Numbered from the stretch's first letter, positions 3,979-64,000 are shown. The stretch: 64,000 bases of DNA from Alphaproteobacteria bacterium (GCA_017453485.1 JAFTEW010000042.1:1331-65330); one strand, 5' to 3'. Translations and numbers: made by a program. Notes: generated by a model from the letters alone, not told the origin.

Positions 3979-4709
3979 TGAGCGATTCAAAGACAAAACC
4001 CGTCATTGAAATTGAAGATGTCTGTAAGACCTATTATATGGCCGGCGGGATGAGTCAATCTGTTCTGAAACACGTATCCTTTTCGGTCAATCCCGGCGAA
4101 TTTGTCGCCATTATGGGACATTCCGGCTCCGGTAAATCAACTTTGATGAACATCTTGGGATGTTTGGACCGACCGACCAGCGGCGTTTATAAATTGGACG
4201 GAACAGCCGTTTCCGAAAAAAATGATGCCGAGTTGGCCCACATTCGCGGCCGGGAAATCGGCTTTGTGTTTCAAAATTTTAATTTGCTGATGAAACGAAC
4301 GATTGCGGATAATGTGTCTTTGCCCCTTATCTATCAGGGAGTTAATGAAAAAGACCGCTATGAACGGGCAATTCAAATGCTACATAAGGTCCAATTGGAC
4401 GGCTATCAAGACCGTCTGCCGACCCAAATTTCGGGGGGGATGCAACAACGGGTCGCGATTGCCCGGGCTCTGATCAATAATCCCAAAATCATATTTGCCG
4501 ATGAACCGACGGGTAATTTGGACAGTATTACCTCCGATGAAATTATGAATCTGTTCACCGATTTAAATAAGCAGGGCATTACCATCGTATTGGTCACCCA
4601 TGAAGACGATGTGGCCGATTATGCCAAACGCATGATTAAAATCGGAGACGGAAAAAAGGTGTATGATGGCCTGCGTTCGGCCTATACCGGGGAGGATAAA
4701 GAATGCTAG
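3978..4709 (+). CDS. ABC transporter ATP-binding protein (MacB/LolD-type)
   Basis: Walker [10 protein letters not shown], signature [15 protein letters not shown], Walker [10 protein letters not shown] chose the start at MSDSKTKPV (ATG 3978, overlapping the macA-like TGA) rather than the ORF-track start 3897, which lies inside the upstream gene. Confidence 0.9.
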
Positions 4710-5920
4710 GTCAAATCTTACGCGAAGCCTGGATATCTATTACCGCCTATAAAATGCGGACATTTTTGACAATGCTCGGCATTATGATCGGTGTAGCAGC
4801 CGTTGTTTTGATGGTTGCAGCCGGTCAAACCGTTCAAAATGAAATTACAAAAACTTTTGATTCGATGGGCACAAACCTGATTATTATCGGCCCCGGTGAA
4901 ACCGTCAGTGGTGGTGTTCGCGGTGGGCGGGGACGTCCCAGCGTCAGTTTTGACGATGTGGAATCACTTCGGGAACTTAAAGATGTTGAAACATCCTCTT
5001 ACATCGTTAATACAGCCGTTCAGGCCGTTTACGGTTCCAATAACTATGGTGTCAGCGTTGCCGGCACAACACCGGAATACCTGAATATTGGAAACTGGGA
5101 AATCGATCAGGGTATCATGTTTACAGACCGGGATTTAAGATCCGGCAAACCCTATGCCGTTATCGGTCAGACCATTGTCAATGAATTGTTCGGATTACAG
5201 GATCCCATCGGGAAAACTCTGCGATTAAAAGGCAAGCCCTTTACCGTTATCGGCACTTTAAAAGAAAAAGGGGACGGCCTGATGGGGGATGATCAGGATA
5301 ACATTATTTTAATGCCGGCAACCACTTTACGTCAACGGTTAAAAGGGTCAAATCGTCCGCAATACAGTGATATAGCCTTTGTTAAAGTGACGGAAGAAAA
5401 CAAAATGGAATCCGTGGCCAATCGGATTGAATATCAACTGCGGGCACGGCATCGGCTAAAAGACGGAGTTCAAAATGACTTTACCGTTCGCCTCATGACG
5501 GATATGGTTGAAAAAGTGCGGAGCGTCGGTTTTTACCTGTCACTATTACTGGCTGCCATCGCATCTATTTCATTGGTTGTCGGCAGTATCGGTATCATGA
5601 ATATGATGTTGGTTTCCGTGACCGAGCGCACCCGTGAAATCGGAACCCGAAAAGCCCTGGGAGCGCCTAATCGCTGGATTATGTTTCAATTTTTGGCTGA
5701 ATCCATTCTAATTTCCTTCATCGGCAGTTTTGTAGGCATGATTATCGGGGTTGTTCTATCCCAAATCGGCGGACAGATTTTGGATAAGGAAGTGCCGATT
5801 TCCGTCTGGTCGGTTGTAATTTCCATTTCCGTAGCCGTCGTTGTCGGGGTAGTTTCCGGTTTAATGCCGGCGATTAAAGCCATGAAACTGGATCCCATAG
5901 AAGCATTAAGGTATCAATAA
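4703..5920 (+). CDS. ABC transporter permease, MacB/FtsX family
   Basis: 405 aa with an N-terminal TM, a large periplasmic domain and a C-terminal FtsX-like 3-TM bundle (TERTREIGTRKALGA motif). The ATG overlaps the upstream TAG. Confidence 0.85.
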   Translation: MLGQILREAWISITAYKMRTFLTMLGIMIGVAAVVLMVAAGQTVQNEITKTFDSMGTNLIIIGPGETVSGGVRGGRGRPSVSFDDVESLRELKDVETSSYIVNTAVQAVYGSNNYGVSVAGTTPEYLNIGNWEIDQGIMFTDRDLRSGKPYAVIGQTIVNELFGLQDPIGKTLRLKGKPFTVIGTLKEKGDGLMGDDQDNIILMPATTLRQRLKGSNRPQYSDIAFVKVTEENKMESVANRIEYQLRARHRLKDGVQNDFTVRLMTDMVEKVRSVGFYLSLLLAAIASISLVVGSIGIMNMMLVSVTERTREIGTRKALGAPNRWIMFQFLAESILISFIGSFVGMIIGVVLSQIGGQILDKEVPISVWSVVISISVAVVVGVVSGLMPAIKAMKLDPIEALRYQ

Positions 5921-7668: not shown

Positions 7669-10263
7669 CTAATATTTTCCCTCAAAAGCATCCAGGTAGA
7701 TTTGCTTGATATCACTCATTAACGGGTAAACCGGATTGGCACCGGTGCATTGGTCGTCGTAGGCCAGTCGTACCAATTTATCCAAATTGTCTTTAAAGGT
7801 CTTTTCATCAACACCCCACTCCCGAATAGATTTCGGAATACCGATAGCAGCCTTTAATTCAGCAACAGCTTTAATCAGCAATTCAACCCGCTCATCATCC
7901 GTTGAGTTTTCATTCCCCAAATATAGCGTATGGGCAATTTGGGCATAGCGTTTTTTGGCTTCCGGTGACATATATTGCGGGAAAGCCGCCTGCTTTTTCG
8001 GGCAATCCGTCGCGTTAAAGCGAATAATTTGACAAATCAACAAAGCATTGGCAATTCCATGCGGAATGTTATACATGGCTCCCAATTTATGTGCCATTGA
8101 GTGACACAGTCCCAAAAATGCATTTGCAAAGGCCATCCCCGCAATCGTTGCCGCATTATGCATTTTTTCGCGGGCCAGTGGATCGGCGGCACCGTCTTTA
8201 TATGACCGGGGCAAGTATCGGAAAATTTGTTTAATGGCTTCCAATGCCAATGAATTTGTGTAATTTGTTGCCATACAGGAAACATAGGCTTCCAGCGCAT
8301 GCACGAGTGCATCAATACCACCGGCCGCCGTCAGGCCCTTGGGCATACCATCCACAAAATTAGCATCAATAATGGCCATTTTCGGGGTCAAGGCGTAATC
8401 GGCAATCGCGTATTTCACATGGGTCGCATCATCCGTAATAATGGAAAACGGCGTGACTTCCGAACCGGTTCCCGATGTTGTCGGAATACAGACCAAATCC
8501 GCTTTTTTACCCAATTCCGGGATAGCACAAATCCGCTTTCTGATATCCATAAACCGCATGGAAATATCTTCAAAGTTCGTATCCGGTTGTTCATACATCA
8601 GCCAAATAATCTTACCGACATCCATGGGTGATCCGCCACCCAAAGCCACAATCAAATCCGGTTGATAGGTGTTCACCATTGTCAAAGCCTGTCTGGCCGT
8701 GGATAATGTCGGATCCGGCTTCACATCAAAGAAAATTTGATAGTCAATGTCCATTTCTTCAAACGTGTCCGTAATAGTGCGCACAGCACCACTGTCAAAC
8801 AAAAATCTGTCCGTAATAATGAACGCCCGTTTTTTGCCTTCAAATTCACGTAATGCCAAATCGGTGGAACCACGCTTAAAATAAATTTTCGGGGGAACTC
8901 TGAACCACAACATATTTTCTCTCCTTTCTGCAACCGTTTTATAATTTAATAGATGTTTCACACCAACATTTTCGCTGACGGAATTACCGCCCCAAGACCC
9001 GCATCCTAAGGTCAATGACGGTTCCAAACGGAAATTATATAAATCACCGATACCGCCTTGGGAAGCCGGACTGTTAATTAAGATACGTCCCGTTGGCATT
9101 TTTTGTGCATAAAAATCAATACGGTCCTGAACACGTTCATCCGTATAAAGAACCGAAGTATGACCCAATCCGCCCAATGCAATCAAGGCATAAGCGATAT
9201 CGGTTGCTTCCTCAAAATTCTTGGCATGATACATCGTCAAAATCGGGGACAATTTTTCATGGGCATACGGATTATCATTGCTATATGAAGTCTGCTCCAC
9301 CAATAAAATTTTAGTCTCTTCCGGAACCTTAAAACCGGCCAATTCAGCAATCTTATAAGCCGGCTGACCAACAATGGCGGCATTGACGCCCTTTGGCGTT
9401 AAGATAATCGCAGACAGTTTTTTTATTTCTTGTTTATTAAGCAGGTATGCCCCCCGATAAACAAATTCTTTTTTAACATCCTCATAAACACTGTCCACAA
9501 CAATGACAGATTGTTCGGAAGCACAAATCATCCCGTTATCAAAAGTTTTAGACATTAGGATAGAAGAAACCGCCATCCGAATATTGGCTGTTTCATCAAT
9601 AATAGCCGGAGTATTACCAGATCCGACCCCCAGCGCCGGTTTACCGCTGGAATAAGCAGCCTTAACCATTCCCGGGCCACCGGTTGCCAATATACCCTGA
9701 ATCTTCGGATGTGTCATCAAGGCATTTGACAATTCAATCGTCGGATCCTCAATCCAGCCGATAATGTCTTTCGGTGCACCGGCTTTGACTGCCGCATCCA
9801 ACACAACTTTTGCAGCCGCAATAGTCGATTTTTTTGCCCGCGGATGCGGTGAAAAAACGATACCGTTCCGTGTTTTTAAACAAATCAGCGATTTAAAAAT
9901 GGCCGTTGATGTCGGATTCGTTGTCGGAACAATGCCGGCCAAAACACCCAACGGGGCCGCCACAATTTTAATTCCGTTGGCCTTATCACGCTTAATAATA
10001 CCACAAGTTTTGACACCTTTATGTTTGTTATAAATATATTCCGAAGCAAAATGGTTTTTGATGATTTTATCTTCCAAAACGCCCATACCGGTTTCTTGAA
10101 CCGCCAATTCTGCCAAATCAATTCGCATCTTATTGGCTGCCGTTGCCGCTGCTTTGAAAATAGCATCTACTTTTTCTTCGGAATATGTTGCAAACTGATT
10201 TTGCGCCACATGGACCCGATCCAAAAGTTTATCTAAATCCGCTATTGTTTTCACACCGCTCAT
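7669..10263 (-). CDS. adhE: bifunctional acetaldehyde-CoA/alcohol dehydrogenase
   Basis: 864 aa with an N-terminal aldehyde dehydrogenase domain and a C-terminal Fe-ADH domain (GGGSPMD, histidine-rich HALEAY...HSMAHKLG). Full-length AdhE architecture. Confidence 0.95.
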   Translation of the reverse strand: MSGVKTIADLDKLLDRVHVAQNQFATYSEEKVDAIFKAAATAANKMRIDLAELAVQETGMGVLEDKIIKNHFASEYIYNKHKGVKTCGIIKRDKANGIKIVAAPLGVLAGIVPTTNPTSTAIFKSLICLKTRNGIVFSPHPRAKKSTIAAAKVVLDAAVKAGAPKDIIGWIEDPTIELSNALMTHPKIQGILATGGPGMVKAAYSSGKPALGVGSGNTPAIIDETANIRMAVSSILMSKTFDNGMICASEQSVIVVDSVYEDVKKEFVYRGAYLLNKQEIKKLSAIILTPKGVNAAIVGQPAYKIAELAGFKVPEETKILLVEQTSYSNDNPYAHEKLSPILTMYHAKNFEEATDIAYALIALGGLGHTSVLYTDERVQDRIDFYAQKMPTGRILINSPASQGGIGDLYNFRLEPSLTLGCGSWGGNSVSENVGVKHLLNYKTVAERRENMLWFRVPPKIYFKRGSTDLALREFEGKKRAFIITDRFLFDSGAVRTITDTFEEMDIDYQIFFDVKPDPTLSTARQALTMVNTYQPDLIVALGGGSPMDVGKIIWLMYEQPDTNFEDISMRFMDIRKRICAIPELGKKADLVCIPTTSGTGSEVTPFSIITDDATHVKYAIADYALTPKMAIIDANFVDGMPKGLTAAGGIDALVHALEAYVSCMATNYTNSLALEAIKQIFRYLPRSYKDGAADPLAREKMHNAATIAGMAFANAFLGLCHSMAHKLGAMYNIPHGIANALLICQIIRFNATDCPKKQAAFPQYMSPEAKKRYAQIAHTLYLGNENSTDDERVELLIKAVAELKAAIGIPKSIREWGVDEKTFKDNLDKLVRLAYDDQCTGANPVYPLMSDIKQIYLDAFEGKY

Positions 10264-15320: not shown

Positions 15321-16610
15321 ATGAAATTCAAATACGCATTATTGGTCGCTACCATGCTGACGCTGCCCACAACCGTCTGGGCCGTCACCGGAAAAACGGA
15401 GACACAATCCTGGGCCGCCTTAACACACGATACAAACGTCAGCGGCGGAGATGATTCCGTTGTCGTTTGTACGGGGGACGGTAATTGCCAGGGATACGCT
15501 AAACTAATCAAAGATGCGTATGGCGATACAAATGAAATCGGGGAAGTGGAAGCAGCAAAAAATAATAGGGCAAATAAAATAGCAAAGGCAAAAGCAGATC
15601 AGAATGCCGCTATTCGTCAGGCTCGGAAAGAACAAAAAGAAACAGAGGCCGCCGCCAAGAAACAACGCCAAGAGGCTGAAAAACAAGCCAAAGCAGAAGC
15701 AGATGCTGCTAAAAAGGTCGCCGCGGAAGAAAAAAATGCCGCTATCAAAGCCGCAAACGAGGAATTACAATCAGCCAAAGATGAAGCTCAGGCTCAAAAA
15801 GCGGCCGCCATCGCCCAAGCCAACGAGAAATATGAACAGGCAAAAGAAGCCGCGCAAGAGAAATTGAATACCCAAATTGATCAGGCAAATAGTGATTATG
15901 CGGCTCGTGCTCAAGAGATTGAAAAAAATAAAGAAAGTGCCTTAGCAGATGCAGAAGCCAAACGAGACATTTCAATGGCAGCCGCCGATGCGTTAGAATT
16001 GGCTGGAAATCCGGAAGCAGCTGCTCAAATGCGGGCCCAGGCAGAACGGGATTATAACAATGACGTAAAAGCGGCAAACCAATTAGCCAAAGCAGAAACA
16101 GCGGCCGCAGCACGGGATGCAAAAGATGCTATCTCAGCCGCCAAAGCAGAAGCCAAGGACACAATTGCTGCTGCATCCAGAGAGGCAAAAAGTGAAATTG
16201 ATGCCGCCCGTGCAACGGCAAATGCCGAAATTGCCGCCGCAAATGATACTGCTGCCGCAAAAATTACGGAAGCGCAGGAAGCTGCAAATAAAAAAATCTT
16301 TGATGCAACTTCTGCGGCGGATACCAAAATCGCAGATGCTAAAAAAGCGGAAGAACAAAGGGCTATGGATGCCGTAGATAAAGCCGATCGGATAGTTGCG
16401 ACCGCCGAAAACAAGAGGGATGAAGATTGGATTAAGGCTGGTAAGGAAGGTGATGATGCTGTCTTTCATGCCACTTTTAATGAATGGTGGAACCAAAAAG
16501 AGGCCGCCAAGAAAAAAGCGACAGCAGACGGCAAAGAATGGACAGAATCTGATGATGTTGCCTGGGAAGCCAAGTTCAAGGAACAACGAAAGAAAAACTT
16601 AGGATACTAA
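15321..16610 (+). CDS. secreted Ala/Lys/Glu-rich coiled-coil protein, function unknown
   Basis: 429 aa with signal peptide MKFKYALLVATMLTLPTTVWA and ~330 aa of A/K/E/Q low-complexity helix. The Trp-rich C-terminal end is WIKAGKEG...EWWNQKE...VAWEAKF. RBS aaggagaaaaaaac ATG. Confidence 0.65.
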   Translation: MKFKYALLVATMLTLPTTVWAVTGKTETQSWAALTHDTNVSGGDDSVVVCTGDGNCQGYAKLIKDAYGDTNEIGEVEAAKNNRANKIAKAKADQNAAIRQARKEQKETEAAAKKQRQEAEKQAKAEADAAKKVAAEEKNAAIKAANEELQSAKDEAQAQKAAAIAQANEKYEQAKEAAQEKLNTQIDQANSDYAARAQEIEKNKESALADAEAKRDISMAAADALELAGNPEAAAQMRAQAERDYNNDVKAANQLAKAETAAAARDAKDAISAAKAEAKDTIAAASREAKSEIDAARATANAEIAAANDTAAAKITEAQEAANKKIFDATSAADTKIADAKKAEEQRAMDAVDKADRIVATAENKRDEDWIKAGKEGDDAVFHATFNEWWNQKEAAKKKATADGKEWTESDDVAWEAKFKEQRKKNLGY

Positions 16611-52397: not shown

Positions 52398-54572
52398 TTA
52401 TTTTAAAACACACTTTCCGCCAGTTATTTGCCGTGGCGTATTTGTCGAATCACACTTGGCACAATCCGTAGTTGAAGCTTCATATGCCATCGCATCCGAA
52501 CAGGGCAAACATACCCAATCGCCGTAATCATCTTTTCCTTTAAAATAGCCATTGGGACATCCGCCGGACAAAGAGCATTTATTCCCGACCATAGTGCGCT
52601 TATAGGGTGTGCTGTCACATTTGGCACATTCCTCGGCCGATGTTTCTTTGGCCGCCGTATTTGAGCAAATTGTGCAGTTCCCGTTGGCATTTTGGAACCA
52701 GCCCTCCGAACAAATCGGATTACAATAATTACCGGAAACTTTTCGCGGATTATCCGTCAAAGCACATTTGTTACATTGTTCTGCCGTCGCGGCATAGCGC
52801 ATCCGATCCGAACAAGCGTGACACTCCCCGCTTGTATCCTGAAAATAGCCGGTCGGACAAATTTTTAAAACACAATATTTTCCATTCATACCACGCGGAT
52901 AATCGGTTGAATCGCATTTAGCACATTCTGCCTCTGTGACAGGCGTGCGCTTATTCGCATCCGAACAGGTGCGACACTCCCCGCTTGTATCTTGAAAATA
53001 GCCGGTCGGACAAGCGGACGGGAAACACTTGTCTCCAAATATTTTTCGGGAGTTATCCGTATCATCGCAGGCCGAACAGGCGGCGGCCGTTGAAACATAG
53101 CCGTCCTTATCCGAACAACTGCGACAAACCATATAATCCGTTTGGAAAAATTGCCCGTTTGCACAAAGTCCGCAATAAAGAGTTCCTTTATCACTTCCCA
53201 AAATACGGGGTGTATTCGTCTGATCACACTTGGCACATTCGGTTTCATCATAGGGCTCATAGCGGCCGATCTGAGAGCAAGAGATACATGTCCCGTTTTT
53301 GCCCCGGAAAGAGCCCGAGGAGCAGGTATCTAAAACACAACTGTTCCCTTCCATTTTGCGTGACGGATCAGAACATTTGGCACATTCCTCCGCCGTCGTT
53401 TGATATCCCGTCATATCCGAACAAGAGCGGCAATTACCGTCCGCATCATAGAACTGTCCCGACGGACAGGAAGCGGGTTTACAGAATTGGCCGAAAACCT
53501 TGCGAGAGGAACCGGTATCGGCACACTTGGCACATTCGTCGGCCGAGGCACGATAACTATCCTGTGCGGAACATTCCCGACACAAACCTTTTGAATCCTG
53601 AAACCAGCCGCCATGACATCCCCCAAGGGTGCAATAATTCCCGTCCATATACCTGTGATAGGGTGTGCTGTCACATTTGGCACATTCTTCGGCCGATGTT
53701 TCTTTCGCCGCCGTATTTGAACAAATTGTGCAGTTCCCGTTGGCATTTTGGAACCAGCCGTCCGGACAAATTAAATCACAATAAGCCCCGTTCATTTTTC
53801 GAGGATTCCCTGTGGAATCGCATTTTTGGCACTCCTCGGCGGATGCCGTATATCTGTATATATCCGAACAGGAAACACATTGTCCCGCCGCATTCAAAAA
53901 GTATTTTGACGGACAATTGCATGTATTTCCCACACAAACATAACCGTCTGAACATTGGCTGTCCGACAGGCAACAATTTGTCGGCTCCGCACATTCATTT
54001 CCGTTATCCGGACAACATTCTGTCACGGTACCGTTGCAATTATGAATGGGGATGACTTCGCTTCGACAAGAGGGTTCTTTTGTCCCCGAATCAGAGCCAT
54101 GTTTTTCACCAGCCTCGGCCCCACCCGTCGATCCGCCGGAAAAAGCCGAAACATATAACATATCATAAAAACGAAATAAAATATTGTTTTCATCCGAATC
54201 ACAACGACCGTTCACGACACCGTTTACGGTTATTTTCTTGGGTAAGGACCAACTGGCAGACATAACTTTTTCACAAACCCCTTTGGGGACATCAAATACC
54301 GTCAGGGAAAAGGTGCGATCATTATTTTGAACCGCCAAAAACGGATAGTCCATCAGATTATGCGTCCGAAATTCCGTTAAATCCAACTGGCGACCTGATC
54401 CGATTTGAACATGTGCCGTTGTCACCATCATATGCACACTGTGCAACAATTCATTGGCTCTATGCTTATCCAAGGCATAACGATAGCCCAAAACTCCGCC
54501 CAGACTTAATAATCCGACAATGGCCAGCACCCCAAGCATTTCGACCATACTGCGACCCGAATCGTTCCGCAT
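52398..54572 (-). CDS. prepilin-type (class III signal) N-terminus fused to a ~130-aa head domain, a G/S/acidic linker and ten tandem 6-Cys modules
   Basis: 724 aa. MRNDSG|RSMVEMLGVLAIVGLLSLGGVLGY has a short basic leader, a Gly, a Glu at +5 and a ~20-aa hydrophobic helix. Residues ~220-724 are ten ~50-aa repeats of the form CPxG[WYF]F...C..CS...EC.KCD...R..G..C. Confidence 0.75.
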   Translation of the reverse strand: MRNDSGRSMVEMLGVLAIVGLLSLGGVLGYRYALDKHRANELLHSVHMMVTTAHVQIGSGRQLDLTEFRTHNLMDYPFLAVQNNDRTFSLTVFDVPKGVCEKVMSASWSLPKKITVNGVVNGRCDSDENNILFRFYDMLYVSAFSGGSTGGAEAGEKHGSDSGTKEPSCRSEVIPIHNCNGTVTECCPDNGNECAEPTNCCLSDSQCSDGYVCVGNTCNCPSKYFLNAAGQCVSCSDIYRYTASAEECQKCDSTGNPRKMNGAYCDLICPDGWFQNANGNCTICSNTAAKETSAEECAKCDSTPYHRYMDGNYCTLGGCHGGWFQDSKGLCRECSAQDSYRASADECAKCADTGSSRKVFGQFCKPASCPSGQFYDADGNCRSCSDMTGYQTTAEECAKCSDPSRKMEGNSCVLDTCSSGSFRGKNGTCISCSQIGRYEPYDETECAKCDQTNTPRILGSDKGTLYCGLCANGQFFQTDYMVCRSCSDKDGYVSTAAACSACDDTDNSRKIFGDKCFPSACPTGYFQDTSGECRTCSDANKRTPVTEAECAKCDSTDYPRGMNGKYCVLKICPTGYFQDTSGECHACSDRMRYAATAEQCNKCALTDNPRKVSGNYCNPICSEGWFQNANGNCTICSNTAAKETSAEECAKCDSTPYKRTMVGNKCSLSGGCPNGYFKGKDDYGDWVCLPCSDAMAYEASTTDCAKCDSTNTPRQITGGKCVLK
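52401..53915 (-). repeat. ten tandem ~150-nt coding repeats (6-Cys modules) inside the pilin-like gene, with two ~96% identical 114-nt copies
   Basis: 52602..52715 and 53658..53771 differ at 5 of 114 positions (offset 1056 nt). 52821..52860 and 52974..53013 differ at 1 of 40 positions (offset 153 nt). Confidence 0.8.
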
Positions 54573-54607: not shown

Positions 54608-54635
54608 ATTTTAAGCAAATATTTTTGAAAGTCAA
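54608..54635 (-). promoter_or_regulatory. sigma70-like promoter for the pilin-like Cys-repeat gene
   Basis: Minus strand: TTGACT, 16 nt, TAAAAT, placed immediately after the APH stop. The RBS GGAAGGGA precedes the ATG at 54572. Confidence 0.5.
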
Positions 54636-54638
54636 TCT

Positions 54639-55526
54639 TTAAATCGTATATTTTTGTTTTTCGGCGGCAGCCATTTTTAAAACAGCGGGCGGAATAACAA
54701 TTTCAGGATGGGAATGTTGCATATATTCCACATACTTATATTCAACATATTTGAACAAATCAACAATCTGACGAATTTTTTCTCGGTCACATAATTTGTG
54801 ATTTTGTGCTTGATAAGCCTCTATCAGAGCCTCCCCCCATTCCGAATCGGACCGTCCGACAAATCGGCCGATATCAGCATGCGGATCAGAAACAGAAACA
54901 AAGGAAAAATCGATAATACCACTGACCCGATAATCATCCCCAACCAAAATATTTCCCGGATTAAAATCTCCGTGAACGATACACGGCTTTTTCATTTGTT
55001 GTTCCAAAACAACCAAATTATGGTGGTAATCCAAATCATATTGTCCCTGATGGACCGTCGCCAAACCACTTAAAAAGTCATTCAAACTTTCCGTGACGGC
55101 CGTCGGTAATGTTTCGATCGGCAAATGATGCAATTCTGACAGAAACAGCGCCATATCAGCCACAATCTGTTCCCGATCAACATCGGTTGCCGCGTCCATT
55201 ACCTGCGTCAAAGCCCGACCGGGAATTTTATAATGCATGGAAAACGGTCTGTTTTGATGACTCATCAGATGCATATCCGGAATGCGTATCGTTGTTTTTC
55301 CTTGCAAGCATTGACAAATTGTGCAATCTTTAACCATCATTTCGGCAAAGAATAAATTCCTGGGAAACCGAAAAATATAATCATGCAATTCCCCATGAAC
55401 ATCAATGGTAATATTTGTCCATCCCGTTGGAATGATTTGGGCTCCGATAACCGAATCATTCTTCCCGATTGTTTCATAAATAATTTGCTTTAATTCAGTT
55501 TCATTCGGTTCAAAAAATTGGTACAT
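54639..55526 (-). CDS. APH/choline-kinase-fold phosphotransferase
   Basis: 295 aa. The catalytic loop is IVHGDFNPGNILV and the metal-binding segment is GIIDFSFVSVSDPHADIG. Confidence 0.8.
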   Translation of the reverse strand: MYQFFEPNETELKQIIYETIGKNDSVIGAQIIPTGWTNITIDVHGELHDYIFRFPRNLFFAEMMVKDCTICQCLQGKTTIRIPDMHLMSHQNRPFSMHYKIPGRALTQVMDAATDVDREQIVADMALFLSELHHLPIETLPTAVTESLNDFLSGLATVHQGQYDLDYHHNLVVLEQQMKKPCIVHGDFNPGNILVGDDYRVSGIIDFSFVSVSDPHADIGRFVGRSDSEWGEALIEAYQAQNHKLCDREKIRQIVDLFKYVEYKYVEYMQHSHPEIVIPPAVLKMAAAEKQKYTI

Positions 55527-56357
55527 TTAAAAAACTCCAAATTGTTTCATCCAATATTTCTTCGCTTTTAAAATAGGTTTCGGATTCTTCACACGATTAT
55601 TGTGGCGATATTTTTCCAGAAAACGAGGGACACTCCTATTCCGGAAAGATGTTTGCTTTATCGGATGAGTCTGATAATGCGTCCACAACCAAATCCGATC
55701 CGATTTTTCAAAGAAATCAGCCTGCACCAAAGCCTTTAAAGATGGGGCCAAAGCATTAAAAAAGTAATCCGACGACGTCGGTTTAACATATCGTCCCGTT
55801 TGGATTTGCCGACGACGAATAAAAGCATCAGATACTTTTTTAGGAACGCATAAAACATGCATATAAACGCGATAACCGTAGTGTTTAGCCAACATCATCA
55901 GATATAAATCTATTTCGGGCTCCAATAATGTCATATCCAACACCAAATTGATTCGGGAACGAACACAATATTGATAAAATAAAACCAAAGCCCTTAATGC
56001 AAAACCGTTTGTGTTTTCCCGCATTTTATCCGGTTCGGTTTGCTGCCAAAAAGTATATTTCGGATGGAAGGGGGCAAAGGCACCAACATTGATTTTTAAA
56101 TAAGGAATACCCAATAATGCTTCTTGAACAGCCGGTGTTAACTGGGATGATTTCCCGCTACCGGATTGACCCGCCATCCGAAAAAGAAATGGATGTTCCG
56201 ACGATAACTTGTCCGTCCGGAAATACCGAATAATATCATCCATCGGAATACGGTTTAGCAATTCATCTTCACACGGGAAAATCCGCTGGATAGCGGCAAA
56301 GGCCCGCCGTTCAAGTTCTTGAATTCCCGCAACTGACATATCATTCTGTTCCGACAT
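55527..56357 (-). CDS. zeta-toxin-like P-loop kinase
   Basis: 276 aa with P-loop MAGQSGSGKSS. The downstream VGAFAPFHPKY and INLVLDMTLL follow the zeta-toxin (PF06414-like) order of motifs. Its stop directly abuts the APH ATG. Confidence 0.55.
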   Translation of the reverse strand: MSEQNDMSVAGIQELERRAFAAIQRIFPCEDELLNRIPMDDIIRYFRTDKLSSEHPFLFRMAGQSGSGKSSQLTPAVQEALLGIPYLKINVGAFAPFHPKYTFWQQTEPDKMRENTNGFALRALVLFYQYCVRSRINLVLDMTLLEPEIDLYLMMLAKHYGYRVYMHVLCVPKKVSDAFIRRRQIQTGRYVKPTSSDYFFNALAPSLKALVQADFFEKSDRIWLWTHYQTHPIKQTSFRNRSVPRFLEKYRHNNRVKNPKPILKAKKYWMKQFGVF

Positions 56358-56714: not shown

Positions 56715-57128
56715 ATGAATAAAATGTTAAAATATGCTATGATGTCATTGGCGGTAGCAGTGACTTTCACAGCGGTCGGCGCGTTTGCTGCCGGTGATGG
56801 TAACGTGTTTAATACAGTGCTTGATCGGATGTTGGTGACATTCCGGAACTCACGTTCTGTGATTTTCGTGGTCGGCGGCTTCGGTTTAATCGGCTTAGGC
56901 TTTGCGGCCATCTTCGGTAAAGTGAACTGGAAATGGTTGGCGGCTTTGGCTTGCGGTTTGGCCATTGTGGCTGTTGCCGGTCAGGTTGTTGACTATGTCA
57001 CACGTCAAGACGTTGGTCAAAACAAGGTCGATGTGGTCGGTTCTTCGTTTGGTGATACGTTGTCGGATAACGAATCTGGTTATTCTACTCACTATTCACC
57101 GGATCAAATCGACTTACACGTCAACTAA
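56715..57128 (+). CDS. TrbC/VirB2-family pilin-like protein (type IV secretion pilin-like) with an extended C-terminal tail
   Basis: 137 aa with signal peptide ...AVGAFA|AGDG and two hydrophobic helices separated by FGKVNWKW (VIFVVGGFGLIGLGFAAIFG / LAALACGLAIVAVAGQVVDYV). This is the VirB2/TrbC layout (by eye). Confidence 0.5.
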   Translation: MNKMLKYAMMSLAVAVTFTAVGAFAAGDGNVFNTVLDRMLVTFRNSRSVIFVVGGFGLIGLGFAAIFGKVNWKWLAALACGLAIVAVAGQVVDYVTRQDVGQNKVDVVGSSFGDTLSDNESGYSTHYSPDQIDLHVN

Positions 57129-63214: not shown

Positions 63215-64000
63215 TTATTTACAGATAACGCCGGCAGCACAAGCATACCCGTCCGGACGACCCGACCACACGGTATTATCATCGCGGCAGGCACCACCTT
63301 GAACCCAATAATTTTTCCCACAAACACCACTTGGCAATCCGGGAATTTTATTTTTAACAGCATTCAATTCTGCACAGGATAACAAACTTTTTCCAATAGA
63401 ACTACACCAACTCCGTGCTCCATTATAGGCTAAATATCCCCAGGTGCAATTTTTATCACGGTCTGCGGATCGACACCAAGACCGTAAATCGGACGCTGTA
63501 TTAAAGTAATAGGTGACACCATCAACAGTTGCGGTCTTAACATTTACTTTCTCACATACATCAGGAGTTCCACCACCCTGATAGTCACCGGAATGCCCGC
63601 CGTAATTACAGAAATATCCATCCGGACAGCCATTAATGGAAGAACAAGATTGTCCTTCATTCGGCTTACACCGACCATAGGCATCACAAACCCCTTTCAT
63701 GCCGGCCTGACTACATTCGGTTCCAGCCGGTAAGAAAGCATGCGTTTGATTACCGTTTGCATCTTCTTCACACGTCATACACGGTGAAAAAGCGCATGTT
63801 TCCGGTTCATCCTCACCTTCATCAGAATCCGTCTCTTTCCCCAATGTATTTGTAAAGACAAACGTGATGGTATTGGCTTCGCCCTGGTCACAGGATCCTG
63901 ATTGTCCCGATTCATCCGTATTGATGGCAATATCCTCGGGCACTTTCCAATCCATACCGTCAATACGCTGACAAACTTCGTCATTCATATCGGATACGGT
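63215..64000 (-). CDS. Cys-rich secreted protein, paralog of the 52398..54572 gene; N-terminus lies beyond the right window edge
   Basis: The frame is open to base 64000 (TVSD precedes the first in-window Met). DWKVPEDIAINTDESGQSGSCDQGEANTITFVFTN aligns with SWSLPKKITVNGVVNGRCDSDENNILFRFYD of the pilin-like protein. An acidic linker and a different Cys-rich C-terminal half (including CPDGYFCNYGG) follow. Confidence 0.6.
   Translation of the reverse strand, partial: TVSDMNDEVCQRIDGMDWKVPEDIAINTDESGQSGSCDQGEANTITFVFTNTLGKETDSDEGEDEPETCAFSPCMTCEEDANGNQTHAFLPAGTECSQAGMKGVCDAYGRCKPNEGQSCSSINGCPDGYFCNYGGHSGDYQGGGTPDVCEKVNVKTATVDGVTYYFNTASDLRSWCRSADRDKNCTWGYLAYNGARSWCSSIGKSLLSCAELNAVKNKIPGLPSGVCGKNYWVQGGACRDDNTVWSGRPDGYACAAGVICK

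Follow-up and report, generated by a model that had tools for sequence, protein, structure and literature searches.

A modular type IVb-like pilin with ten tandem six-cysteine repeats, and its dispersed paralogues in gut Alphaproteobacteria

Here we describe a gene in a stretch of 64,000 nucleotides (nt) of DNA from an Alphaproteobacteria bacterium (GCA_017453485.1 JAFTEW010000042.1:1331-65330), hereafter called the window. The product of the gene is a protein of 724 amino acids (aa) whose N-terminal pilin module is joined via a flexible linker to a C-terminal extension of about 550 aa, predicted to be disulfide-rich and composed of a ten-cysteine knot and ten repeats of six cysteines each. 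An earlier reading of the DNA, the original prediction, had described the product as an atypical giant pilin-like protein. Our analysis gives good support to its identity as a modular type IVb-like pilin.

Results

Layout of the gene and its product

The features of the gene, all on the minus strand, are the following:

52398..54572, minus: complete open reading frame (ORF) of the modular type IVb-like pilin, 724 aa plus stop, ATG start
54555..54572, minus: leader peptide MRNDSG, aa 1-6, ending at the invariant Gly(-1) (direct from the sequence)
54132..54554, minus: pilin module, aa 7-147 (AlphaFold2, Foldseek, profile matches and Pfam matches of head homologues)
54069..54131, minus: Gly/Ser/acidic flexible linker SGGSTGGAEAGEKHGSDSGTKE, aa 148-168 (direct from the sequence)
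53916..54068, minus: ten-Cys knot, aa 169-219, between linker and repeats (Cys positions 169-218)
52401..53915, minus: ten tandem repeats of six Cys each, aa 220-724, predicted disulfide-rich rod (Cys spacing, hidden Markov model (HMM) and AlphaFold2)
54608..54635, minus: σ70-like promoter match TTGACT-16-TAAAAT, about 36 nt 5' of the ATG (consensus match only)

An in-frame stop lies two codons 5' of the ATG, and protein P0001, encoded on an 85.5-kb contig, is 100% identical to the 724-aa product. The σ70-like match suggests that the gene is monocistronic; the number of promoter-like matches around that site is not above shuffle expectation.

The product contains 72 cysteines (9.9% of its residues), which agrees with the hand count of about 70 in the original prediction. 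Two are located in the head (C100 and C124), ten in the knot and 60 in the repeats, so that their number is even in every part of the protein. The leader and linker are present as had been described, and the ten six-Cys repeats with their spacing were confirmed by the Cys positions and by an HMM of the repeat.

A signal conserved from the predicted cleavage site onwards

The N-terminus, MRNDSG|RSMVEMLGVLAIVGLLSLGG, has the elements of a class III signal, namely a short leader up to Gly(-1), a Glu at +5 and a hydrophobic stretch of about 20 residues, with G6|R7 as the predicted prepilin-peptidase cleavage site. We aligned 242 distinct family N-termini at the Gly, a set for which the search pattern itself required G-1 and E+5; both residues are also invariant, independently of that pattern, in a 30-sequence alignment of the family (A1). 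Positions upstream of the Gly carry 0.4-1.5 bits of information, E/Q at -3 being the exception, and those from G-1 to +11 carry about 4 bits. Arg at +1 is invariant in the 242 N-termini, while S+2, M+3 and V+4 are conserved at 94-98%, giving the consensus [EQ]-[ST]-G|RSMVEMLGVLA..G.L. The leader itself is unconstrained in sequence and varies in length from 6 to 104 aa (median 12). This sharp boundary at the canonical cleavage site fits a leader that is removed from an assembly helix, and not a plain membrane anchor. A charged Glu at +5 within a transmembrane helix is a hallmark of assembling pilins.

Synonymous sites are free within the motif, with all four Gly codons in use and Ser+2 encoded by both AGT and TCN. 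As such, the invariance of the leader motif reflects selection at the protein level, and gene conversion or a DNA-level function was rejected as its cause. A literature search for the motif strings returned nothing, and one for RF32 and pili returned nothing relevant.

The head is related to type IVb major pilins

AlphaFold2 modelled the head with a pLDDT (predicted local distance difference test) of 86.3 and a pTM (predicted template modelling score) of 0.73, the pLDDT dropping to 57 at the end of the model on the linker side. The module bears Glu+5 at the start of a long α1 helix of 52 residues (aa 7-58), which is followed by a four-stranded β-sheet and contains C100 and C124. The model has the features that define a pilin fold, namely an extended α1 helix, about 50 residues long and packed against an antiparallel β-sheet, and a C-terminal Cys pair. 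C100 and C124 fall in conserved Cys columns of the family alignment, at the position of the D-region, and form a putative disulfide.

When the head model was compared with the PDB by Foldseek, the top three matches were the type IVb pilus of enterotoxigenic Escherichia coli (ETEC; 9iuf, probability 0.99, TMq 0.61) and two chains of TcpA (8uhf). The E-values were weak and the hits coherent, the structural neighbours being major pilin chains. In addition, a profile of the family alignment matched TcpA (8uhf), BfpA (1zwt) and PilS (1q5f) in the PDB, and CofA, TcpA, BfpA and PilS are the top matches of the head by Foldseek and profile together.

A sequence search with the head (aa 1-147) retrieved 527 clusters, every one of them starting with ...G|RSMVEMLGVLA..G.LS. 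Many head homologues of about 190 aa and two Cys (E about 1e-13) carry precomputed matches to the Pfam families Bundlin (PF05307) and PilS_N (PF08805), and a Pfam rescan found Bundlin and PilS in 11 of the 30 aligned members at about 1e-14. The head of the 724-aa protein, member 1 of this alignment, is itself below the Bundlin/PilS thresholds. Among the other models, NCBIfam PRK10506 ('prepilin peptidase-dependent protein') matched 22 of the 30 below threshold, N_methyl matched two relatives, TIGR02532 matched four weakly, and GspH gave a weak match in only one. A short member of the family, P0227, aligns over 95% of its length and with 26-28% identity to BfpA and to R64-type genes named 'type 4 pilus major pilin', one of which lies in Burkholderia in a type IVb operon, TcpQ-PilN-PilO2-PilP-PilQ-PilR-PilS-PilM-PilV, the PilV tip adhesin having 565 aa.

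The relation to the Bundlin and PilS_N families and to solved type IVb pilins therefore holds through homologues, profile and Foldseek. Type IVb pilins have a leader of about 15-30 aa, a residue other than Phe at +1 and genes clustered in one operon. Arg at +1 fits this description, whereas the leader of 6 aa and the dispersed genes do not. With an N-terminal pilin module, a linker and additional non-pilin modules, the protein also has the architecture of a modular pilin.

A cysteine repeat absent from curated domain families

The repeat unit spans 48-53 aa (n = 10) and holds six Cys in the pattern C-P-x-G-[WYF]-F...C-x2-C-S...E-C-A-K-C...C. An HMM of the ten units found 2-10 copies in about 55 homologues. 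At the DNA level, a stretch of 222 nt is 80% identical between repeats 2 and 9 (52575-52796 vs 53631-53852) and one of 55 nt is 93% identical between repeats 7 and 8 (52806-52860 vs 52959-53013), and hence the array grew partly by recent internal duplication. Such intragenic DNA repeats are possible substrates for variation in repeat number via recombination or slippage.

Repeats 2-4 (aa 269-416; 26 aligned windows) were modelled by AlphaFold2 with a pLDDT of 94.5, each unit consisting of β-hairpins and a short helix. Foldseek found nothing significant for this three-repeat model in the PDB, the best E-value being 0.09 and the TM-score at most 0.26 (wheat germ agglutinin, megalin and the Cys-rich region of the insulin receptor). 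A three-repeat profile matched the ephrin-receptor-like repeats of the Chlamydomonas mastigoneme protein Mst1 (PDB 8tx1; E 3.8e-7). The curated furin, GCC2_GCC3, Ephrin_rec_like and VSP models gave no match at E <= 10 on the protein, and Pfam on the 26 three-repeat windows returned scattered sub-threshold matches to TNFR_ELAPOR1 (six windows, best 4.8e-5) and weak ones to NCD3G. Of the eukaryote-like character that had been proposed for the repeat, the distant Mst1 match is what stands, while the named furin, GCC2_GCC3, VSP and Paramecium-antigen models found no match and no Pfam model reached its threshold on the repeat. The Mst1 repeats have the C-P-x-G-[YF]-[FW] and CxxC rhythm in common with it, whereas the 50-aa six-Cys unit with its short helix and E-C-A-K-C is specific to the bacterial family.

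Compared with 1.84 billion representative proteins, the repeat profile matched 1,832 at E <= 1e-3, of which 602 reached <= 1e-10 and 114 reached <= 1e-30. The carriers are proteins with the pilin leader, proteins with a Sec signal (many with 'AFGGGG' after the signal peptide) and giants of 4,000-6,700 aa with 15-55 repeats, which are presumably eukaryotic. From this mixed set it follows that the repeat is a mobile module, for which fusion to a pilin is one context. The combination of a Sec signal with an 'AF/AGG(S)IFGG / AFGGGG...' motif was seen in P0362, P0368, P0373, P0377, P0387, P0391, P0398, P0407, P0408 and P0485, and this start suggests a second N-terminal sorting or anchoring module for the six-Cys repeat.

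A large family in gut Alphaproteobacteria

One genome per GTDB species was scanned with the leader pattern and matches were then confirmed by tblastn. At least 596 pattern matches were obtained, of which at least 579 were confirmed, and among the matches listed nearly all are from 'Alphaproteobacteria bacterium' metagenome-assembled genomes (MAGs) from human, ruminant, rabbit and other guts. These loci and the 527 clusters of the head search make the family much larger than in the original prediction, which had named one paralogue. The family is a large, fast-diverging paralogous set in uncultured anaerobic gut Alphaproteobacteria. Among 80 loci examined, at least 15 copies come from the MAG SIG53 and at least 13 from SIG60 (116-138 kb of DNA), and the mature proteins range from about 100 to 1,600 aa. 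The size classes run from bundlin/PilS-like pilins of about 190 aa, which are candidate major subunits, to proteins of more than 1,000 aa with varied C-terminal modules. In databases the members are named 'hypothetical protein', 'type II secretion system protein' or 'PilE'.

A few family loci (L028, L029, L050 and L068) are in MAGs labelled Acidaminococcaceae, Lactobacillales or Gastranaerophilales, and P0325, an orthologue of the ATPase described below, is also labelled Lactobacillales; these are probably mis-binned or mislabelled alphaproteobacterial contigs. On a Hadza gut contig (L096), two serine recombinase (Resolvase/invertase) genes at 4411-5019 (minus) and 8242-8868 (minus) lie near the short pilin P0150 (L096:10001-10573) and flank the region upstream of it, which includes a 1.1-kb intergenic gap. 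This recombinase-flanked gap could, from its arrangement, be an invertible promoter that confers phase variation.

Genomic setting, neighbouring genes and an orphan ATPase

The window sits on the 85.5-kb contig (scaffold_283) of a ruminant gut metagenome assembly, ERZ28655124, and is ordinary chromosome of an anaerobic alphaproteobacterium, with GcrA, FYDLN_acid, prfA-prmC, argS, dnaK/J, ruvAB, AdhE and other housekeeping genes. The modular pilin gene is flanked by tRNA-Gly(GCC) and by a group of APH, Zeta-toxin and TrbC (VirB2-like) genes. A genomic island at the tRNA-Gly was considered and rejected, as the 3' end of the tRNA is not duplicated (no att-like copy) and a clear GC break is lacking. 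The neighbouring features, and the ATPase genes found in related loci, are:

54639-55526, minus: APH-family phosphotransferase, directly upstream of the modular pilin
55527-56357, minus: Zeta-toxin-like P-loop kinase
56715-57128, plus: orphan TrbC/VirB2-like (type IV secretion pilin) gene
63215..64000, minus: paralogue of the modular pilin (C-terminal 257 aa within the window; 372 aa in its complete form on the contig)
L063:16431-18314, plus: T2SSE-family ATPase, 6 kb from a family member
L089:10001-11464 and L091:10001-11233: orthologues of the T2SSE ATPase

Apart from the TrbC/VirB2-like gene, no other gene of a type IV secretion system (T4SS) was found on the contig. The complete paralogue (L001:240-1358) comprises window positions 63215-64000 and 333 nt past the window end. 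It has the same leader, LQSG|RSMVEMLGVLAIVGVLTIGG, a similar head and a different Cys-rich C-terminus, and so the two genes form a family, as had been proposed. For its C-terminal ~140 aa, and for those of L063:9971-11095, a C-type lectin-like domain was considered but received no support from Pfam and PDB sequence searches. Elsewhere in the window, a gene at 15321-16610 (plus) encodes a 429-aa signal-peptide protein that is very rich in Ala, Lys, Glu and Gln, has a coiled-coil look and has no Pfam match; the Cys-rich ORFs opposite to it are spurious and stem from its codon bias.

The only pilus-related machinery gene that we found, in the window, its contig and about 1.3 Mb of related loci, encodes a PilT/DotB-like ATPase of the T2SSE family. 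Within the lineage its identity is 54-93%, and it is an orphan that is always divergent from rimP-nusA-infB; the contigs that carry it equal in length those of the family members P0013 and P0029 and are probably the same. Among proteins of solved structure, DotB and PilT are nearest to it, about equally so, and when compared with the Burkholderia operon it is nearer to a PilT-like ATPase than to PilQ. The N-terminal extension of the ATPase is highly variable and Pro-rich, with several near-identical repeats of about 40 aa in the L063 copy.

Discussion

The data are best explained by a model in which the gene encodes a pilin of the type IVb lineage that is incorporated into a pilus and displays its repeat rod as an adhesin or spacer, to which we assign a probability of roughly 0.6. 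By analogy, the protein would be a modular minor pilin adhesin akin to PilV, TcpB and CofB, and the family as a whole is probably a set of pilus-displayed adhesins. In such a model, the variable leader would be cut at G6|R7 by a dedicated prepilin peptidase, and the α1 helix would place the protein in a type IVb-like filament made mainly of a short paralogue. The bulky extension would limit it to the tip or to low-abundance positions, as in PilV, TcpB and CofB, and the oxidatively folded repeat rod would stick out of the filament. We infer cleavage, incorporation and projection by analogy with these systems. The many paralogues with different C-termini might thereby form a hard-wired repertoire of binding specificities, the functional counterpart of the PilV shufflon.

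Here we speculate on a more far-reaching version, 'one machine, many tips', which we regard as possible and put forward tentatively. A dedicated peptidase would read a hitherto unrecognised subtype of class III signal, [EQ]-[ST]-G|RSMVEMLGVLA with its invariant Arg+1, and through this signal modular pilins from dozens of dispersed genes would enter one and the same type IVb-like filament, with the repertoire replacing shufflon-type variation and some modules being derived from, or mimicking, those of hosts or protists. In this version the prepilin peptidase may be divergent, and the rod of ephrin-receptor/TNFR-type Cys repeats may have been acquired from, or be a mimic of, host or protist surface proteins.

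Several observations weigh against a pilus-displayed adhesin. The 724-aa protein scored 12.5 bits against Pfam N_methyl (PF07963), where the gathering threshold is 21.2 (E 0.12), and NCBIfam, including TIGR02532, gave no match to it. Arg at +1 of a class III signal, in place of Phe, Met or Leu, is unusual, and we know of no precedent for it. The pilin-type signal of the original prediction is thus upheld by the fold and by the conservation of the leader motif, but not by the curated models or by the +1 residue. In the loci examined, the family genes are single and dispersed among housekeeping genes and never lie in pilus operons; housekeeping neighbours only were seen for the short bundlin-like P0227, P0146 and P0150, for P0008 and for both contig ends. 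For the assembly machinery, the window and related loci were searched by tblastn and phmmer with E. coli GspD/E/F/G/L/O, by phmmer with the Burkholderia R64-like TcpQ, PilN, PilO2, PilP, PilQ, PilR, PilM and PilV, and by regular expressions for the Walker A motif and the 'GxGDxK' motif of A24. The window showed no pil, gsp or tad assembly genes, in agreement with what had been reported for pilus and type II secretion system (T2SS) genes, and neither did the annotated ~83 of the 85.5 kb of the contig. Likewise, no A24 prepilin peptidase, platform protein (GspF/PilC/PilR), PilN/secretin or PilB-type ATPase was found there or in related loci totalling about 1.3 Mb; the sampled DNA is a small part of each genome, and this limit applies to all of the machinery negatives. 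Three genes upstream of the short pilin of L005 were discarded as a source of machinery, as their products, judged by eye, look like oxidoreductase-like, polytopic membrane and tetratricopeptide repeat-like proteins, none with an A24 motif. In addition, the T2SSE ATPase could belong to a T4SS, a TrbC/VirB2-like gene being located 2 kb from the pilin gene, and it is questionable whether a predicted rigid rod of 550 aa could pass through the outer-membrane channel of a pilus.

The alternative that survives best, which we nevertheless consider unlikely, is that class III signal and pilin module are used in a general way to export and anchor many unrelated ectodomains. The proteins would be processed by a peptidase and reside in short cell-bound pseudopilus stubs or periplasm-spanning assemblies, comparable to a bindosome, and not in long adhesive pili. 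Precedents are the sugar-binding proteins of Sulfolobus and the expanded PulG-like families of Planctomycetes and Verrucomicrobia. The very large expansion of paralogues, which differ in their C-termini and reach about 1,600 aa in size, would be in line with this alternative, as would genes that are dispersed without link to pilus operons and the failure to find a secretin or PilN in the sampled DNA. However, the secretin negative covers a small sample of each genome, the head is related specifically to filament-forming type IVb major pilins, and the same family includes short Bundlin/PilS-like paralogues of normal pilin size with the Cys pair.

It is more improbable still that the N-terminus is an uncleaved signal-anchor, in which a helix targeted by Sec/SRP (signal recognition particle) tethers a Cys-rich protein of the periplasm or envelope, with neither peptidase nor filament and with the pilin fold as a relic. 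The sub-threshold N_methyl and TIGR02532 results for the 724-aa protein, the unusual Arg and the absence of A24 peptidase and platform genes from the sampled DNA would all agree with such an anchor, yet it leaves unexplained why G-1, R+1, S+2, M+3, V+4 and E+5 are conserved while synonymous sites are free, why conservation begins sharply at the cleavage site, why a Glu is kept at +5 within a transmembrane helix and why the globular pilin fold and its Cys pair are retained. A component or substrate of a T2SS or T4SS, be it a pseudopilin-like tip protein or a partner of the DotB-like ATPase and the TrbC/VirB2-like pilin, is very improbable, for although some members bear the NCBI name 'type II secretion system protein', the ATPase of the lineage is as near to DotB as to PilT and a TrbC gene is present at 56715-57128, no gsp genes were found in the window and related loci, the head matches type IVb pilins and not GspG-K (a weak GspH match in one of 30 members), T2SS pseudopilin sets are small and operon-encoded, and T4SS pilins are unrelated in fold and signal.

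A modular pilin displayed on a filament has clear precedents, and as such the protein is less atypical than the original prediction had held. Modular pilins number over 1,200 proteins, with 264 architectures between them, one being an 860-aa pilin with 12 repeats, and are predicted to be tip-exposed, their design being a small pilin module, a short linker and grafted modules (PMC8179133). The examples of Raynaud et al. 2021 (Streptococcus sanguinis PilB with a vWA and PilC with a lectin module; the 860-aa Falkowbacteria pilin with 12 repeats) share this design with the 724-aa protein. Those modular pilins were, however, gathered through IPR012902 (N_methyl), which the 724-aa protein fails, and are of T4a/Com type with a Phe/Met-type +1 residue in place of Arg; moreover, its grafted repeat is in no curated domain family.

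Among type IVb systems, PilV has, like the family, a constant N-terminal pilin part and alternative C-terminal parts, by which its binding specificity is presumed to be set (PMC9045228, PMC5430464). The short family members align over their full length to PilS-type and BfpA major pilins, relatives of the PilS that accompanies PilV in the type IVb thin pili of R64/IncI and TP114, and the pairing of a PilS of about 180 aa with a PilV of 565 aa in the R64-like operon resembles that of short and long family members. In contrast, PilV diversity arises by DNA inversion at one locus and that of the family through dozens of dispersed paralogues; the family genes are chromosomal and not linked to a pil operon or to conjugation genes; a ten-unit Cys-repeat rod makes up the C-terminal part of the 724-aa protein; and the leader reads G|RSMVEM, as opposed to G|ASLLE and G|FALIE in the Burkholderia example. 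TcpB and CofB combine a type IVb pilin module bearing Glu5 with a linker and extra C-terminal domains, and function at the tip in assembly initiation and ligand binding (PMC5207764, PMC6048534). TcpB from the toxin-coregulated pilus of Vibrio cholerae and CofB of ETEC CFA/III (colonization factor antigen III) share the layout of the 724-aa protein, whose head has the major pilins of these pili as its best structural neighbours. They are single-copy, operon-encoded and equipped with β-repeat or β-sandwich domains, whereas the 724-aa protein has many paralogues, no operon and Cys-rich repeats.

The architecture of a pilin module with grafted modules is therefore already known. What appears to be new is a signal subtype with invariant Arg+1 that the curated models miss, the size of the paralogue repertoire in gut Alphaproteobacteria and the scatter of its genes, a modular pilin whose pilin module is set in a type IVb context, and an uncatalogued six-Cys repeat. 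The 50-aa repeat, with its confidently predicted fold (AlphaFold2) and no Pfam family, merits a model of its own.

Since surveys rely on N_methyl/IPR012902, which the family largely escapes, modular pilins are under-counted, and hundreds of type IVb-like ones, in gut Alphaproteobacteria of humans, ruminants and rabbits that are common but uncultured, are now named 'hypothetical' or 'type II secretion system protein'. The invariant G|RSMVEM with Arg at +1 predicts a testable specificity of peptidase and assembly. If they are displayed on pili, these proteins would rank as one of the larger known sets of adhesins on a type IV filament, carried by commensals with small genomes, and would provide a handle on how these bacteria attach to mucus, host cells and other microbes.

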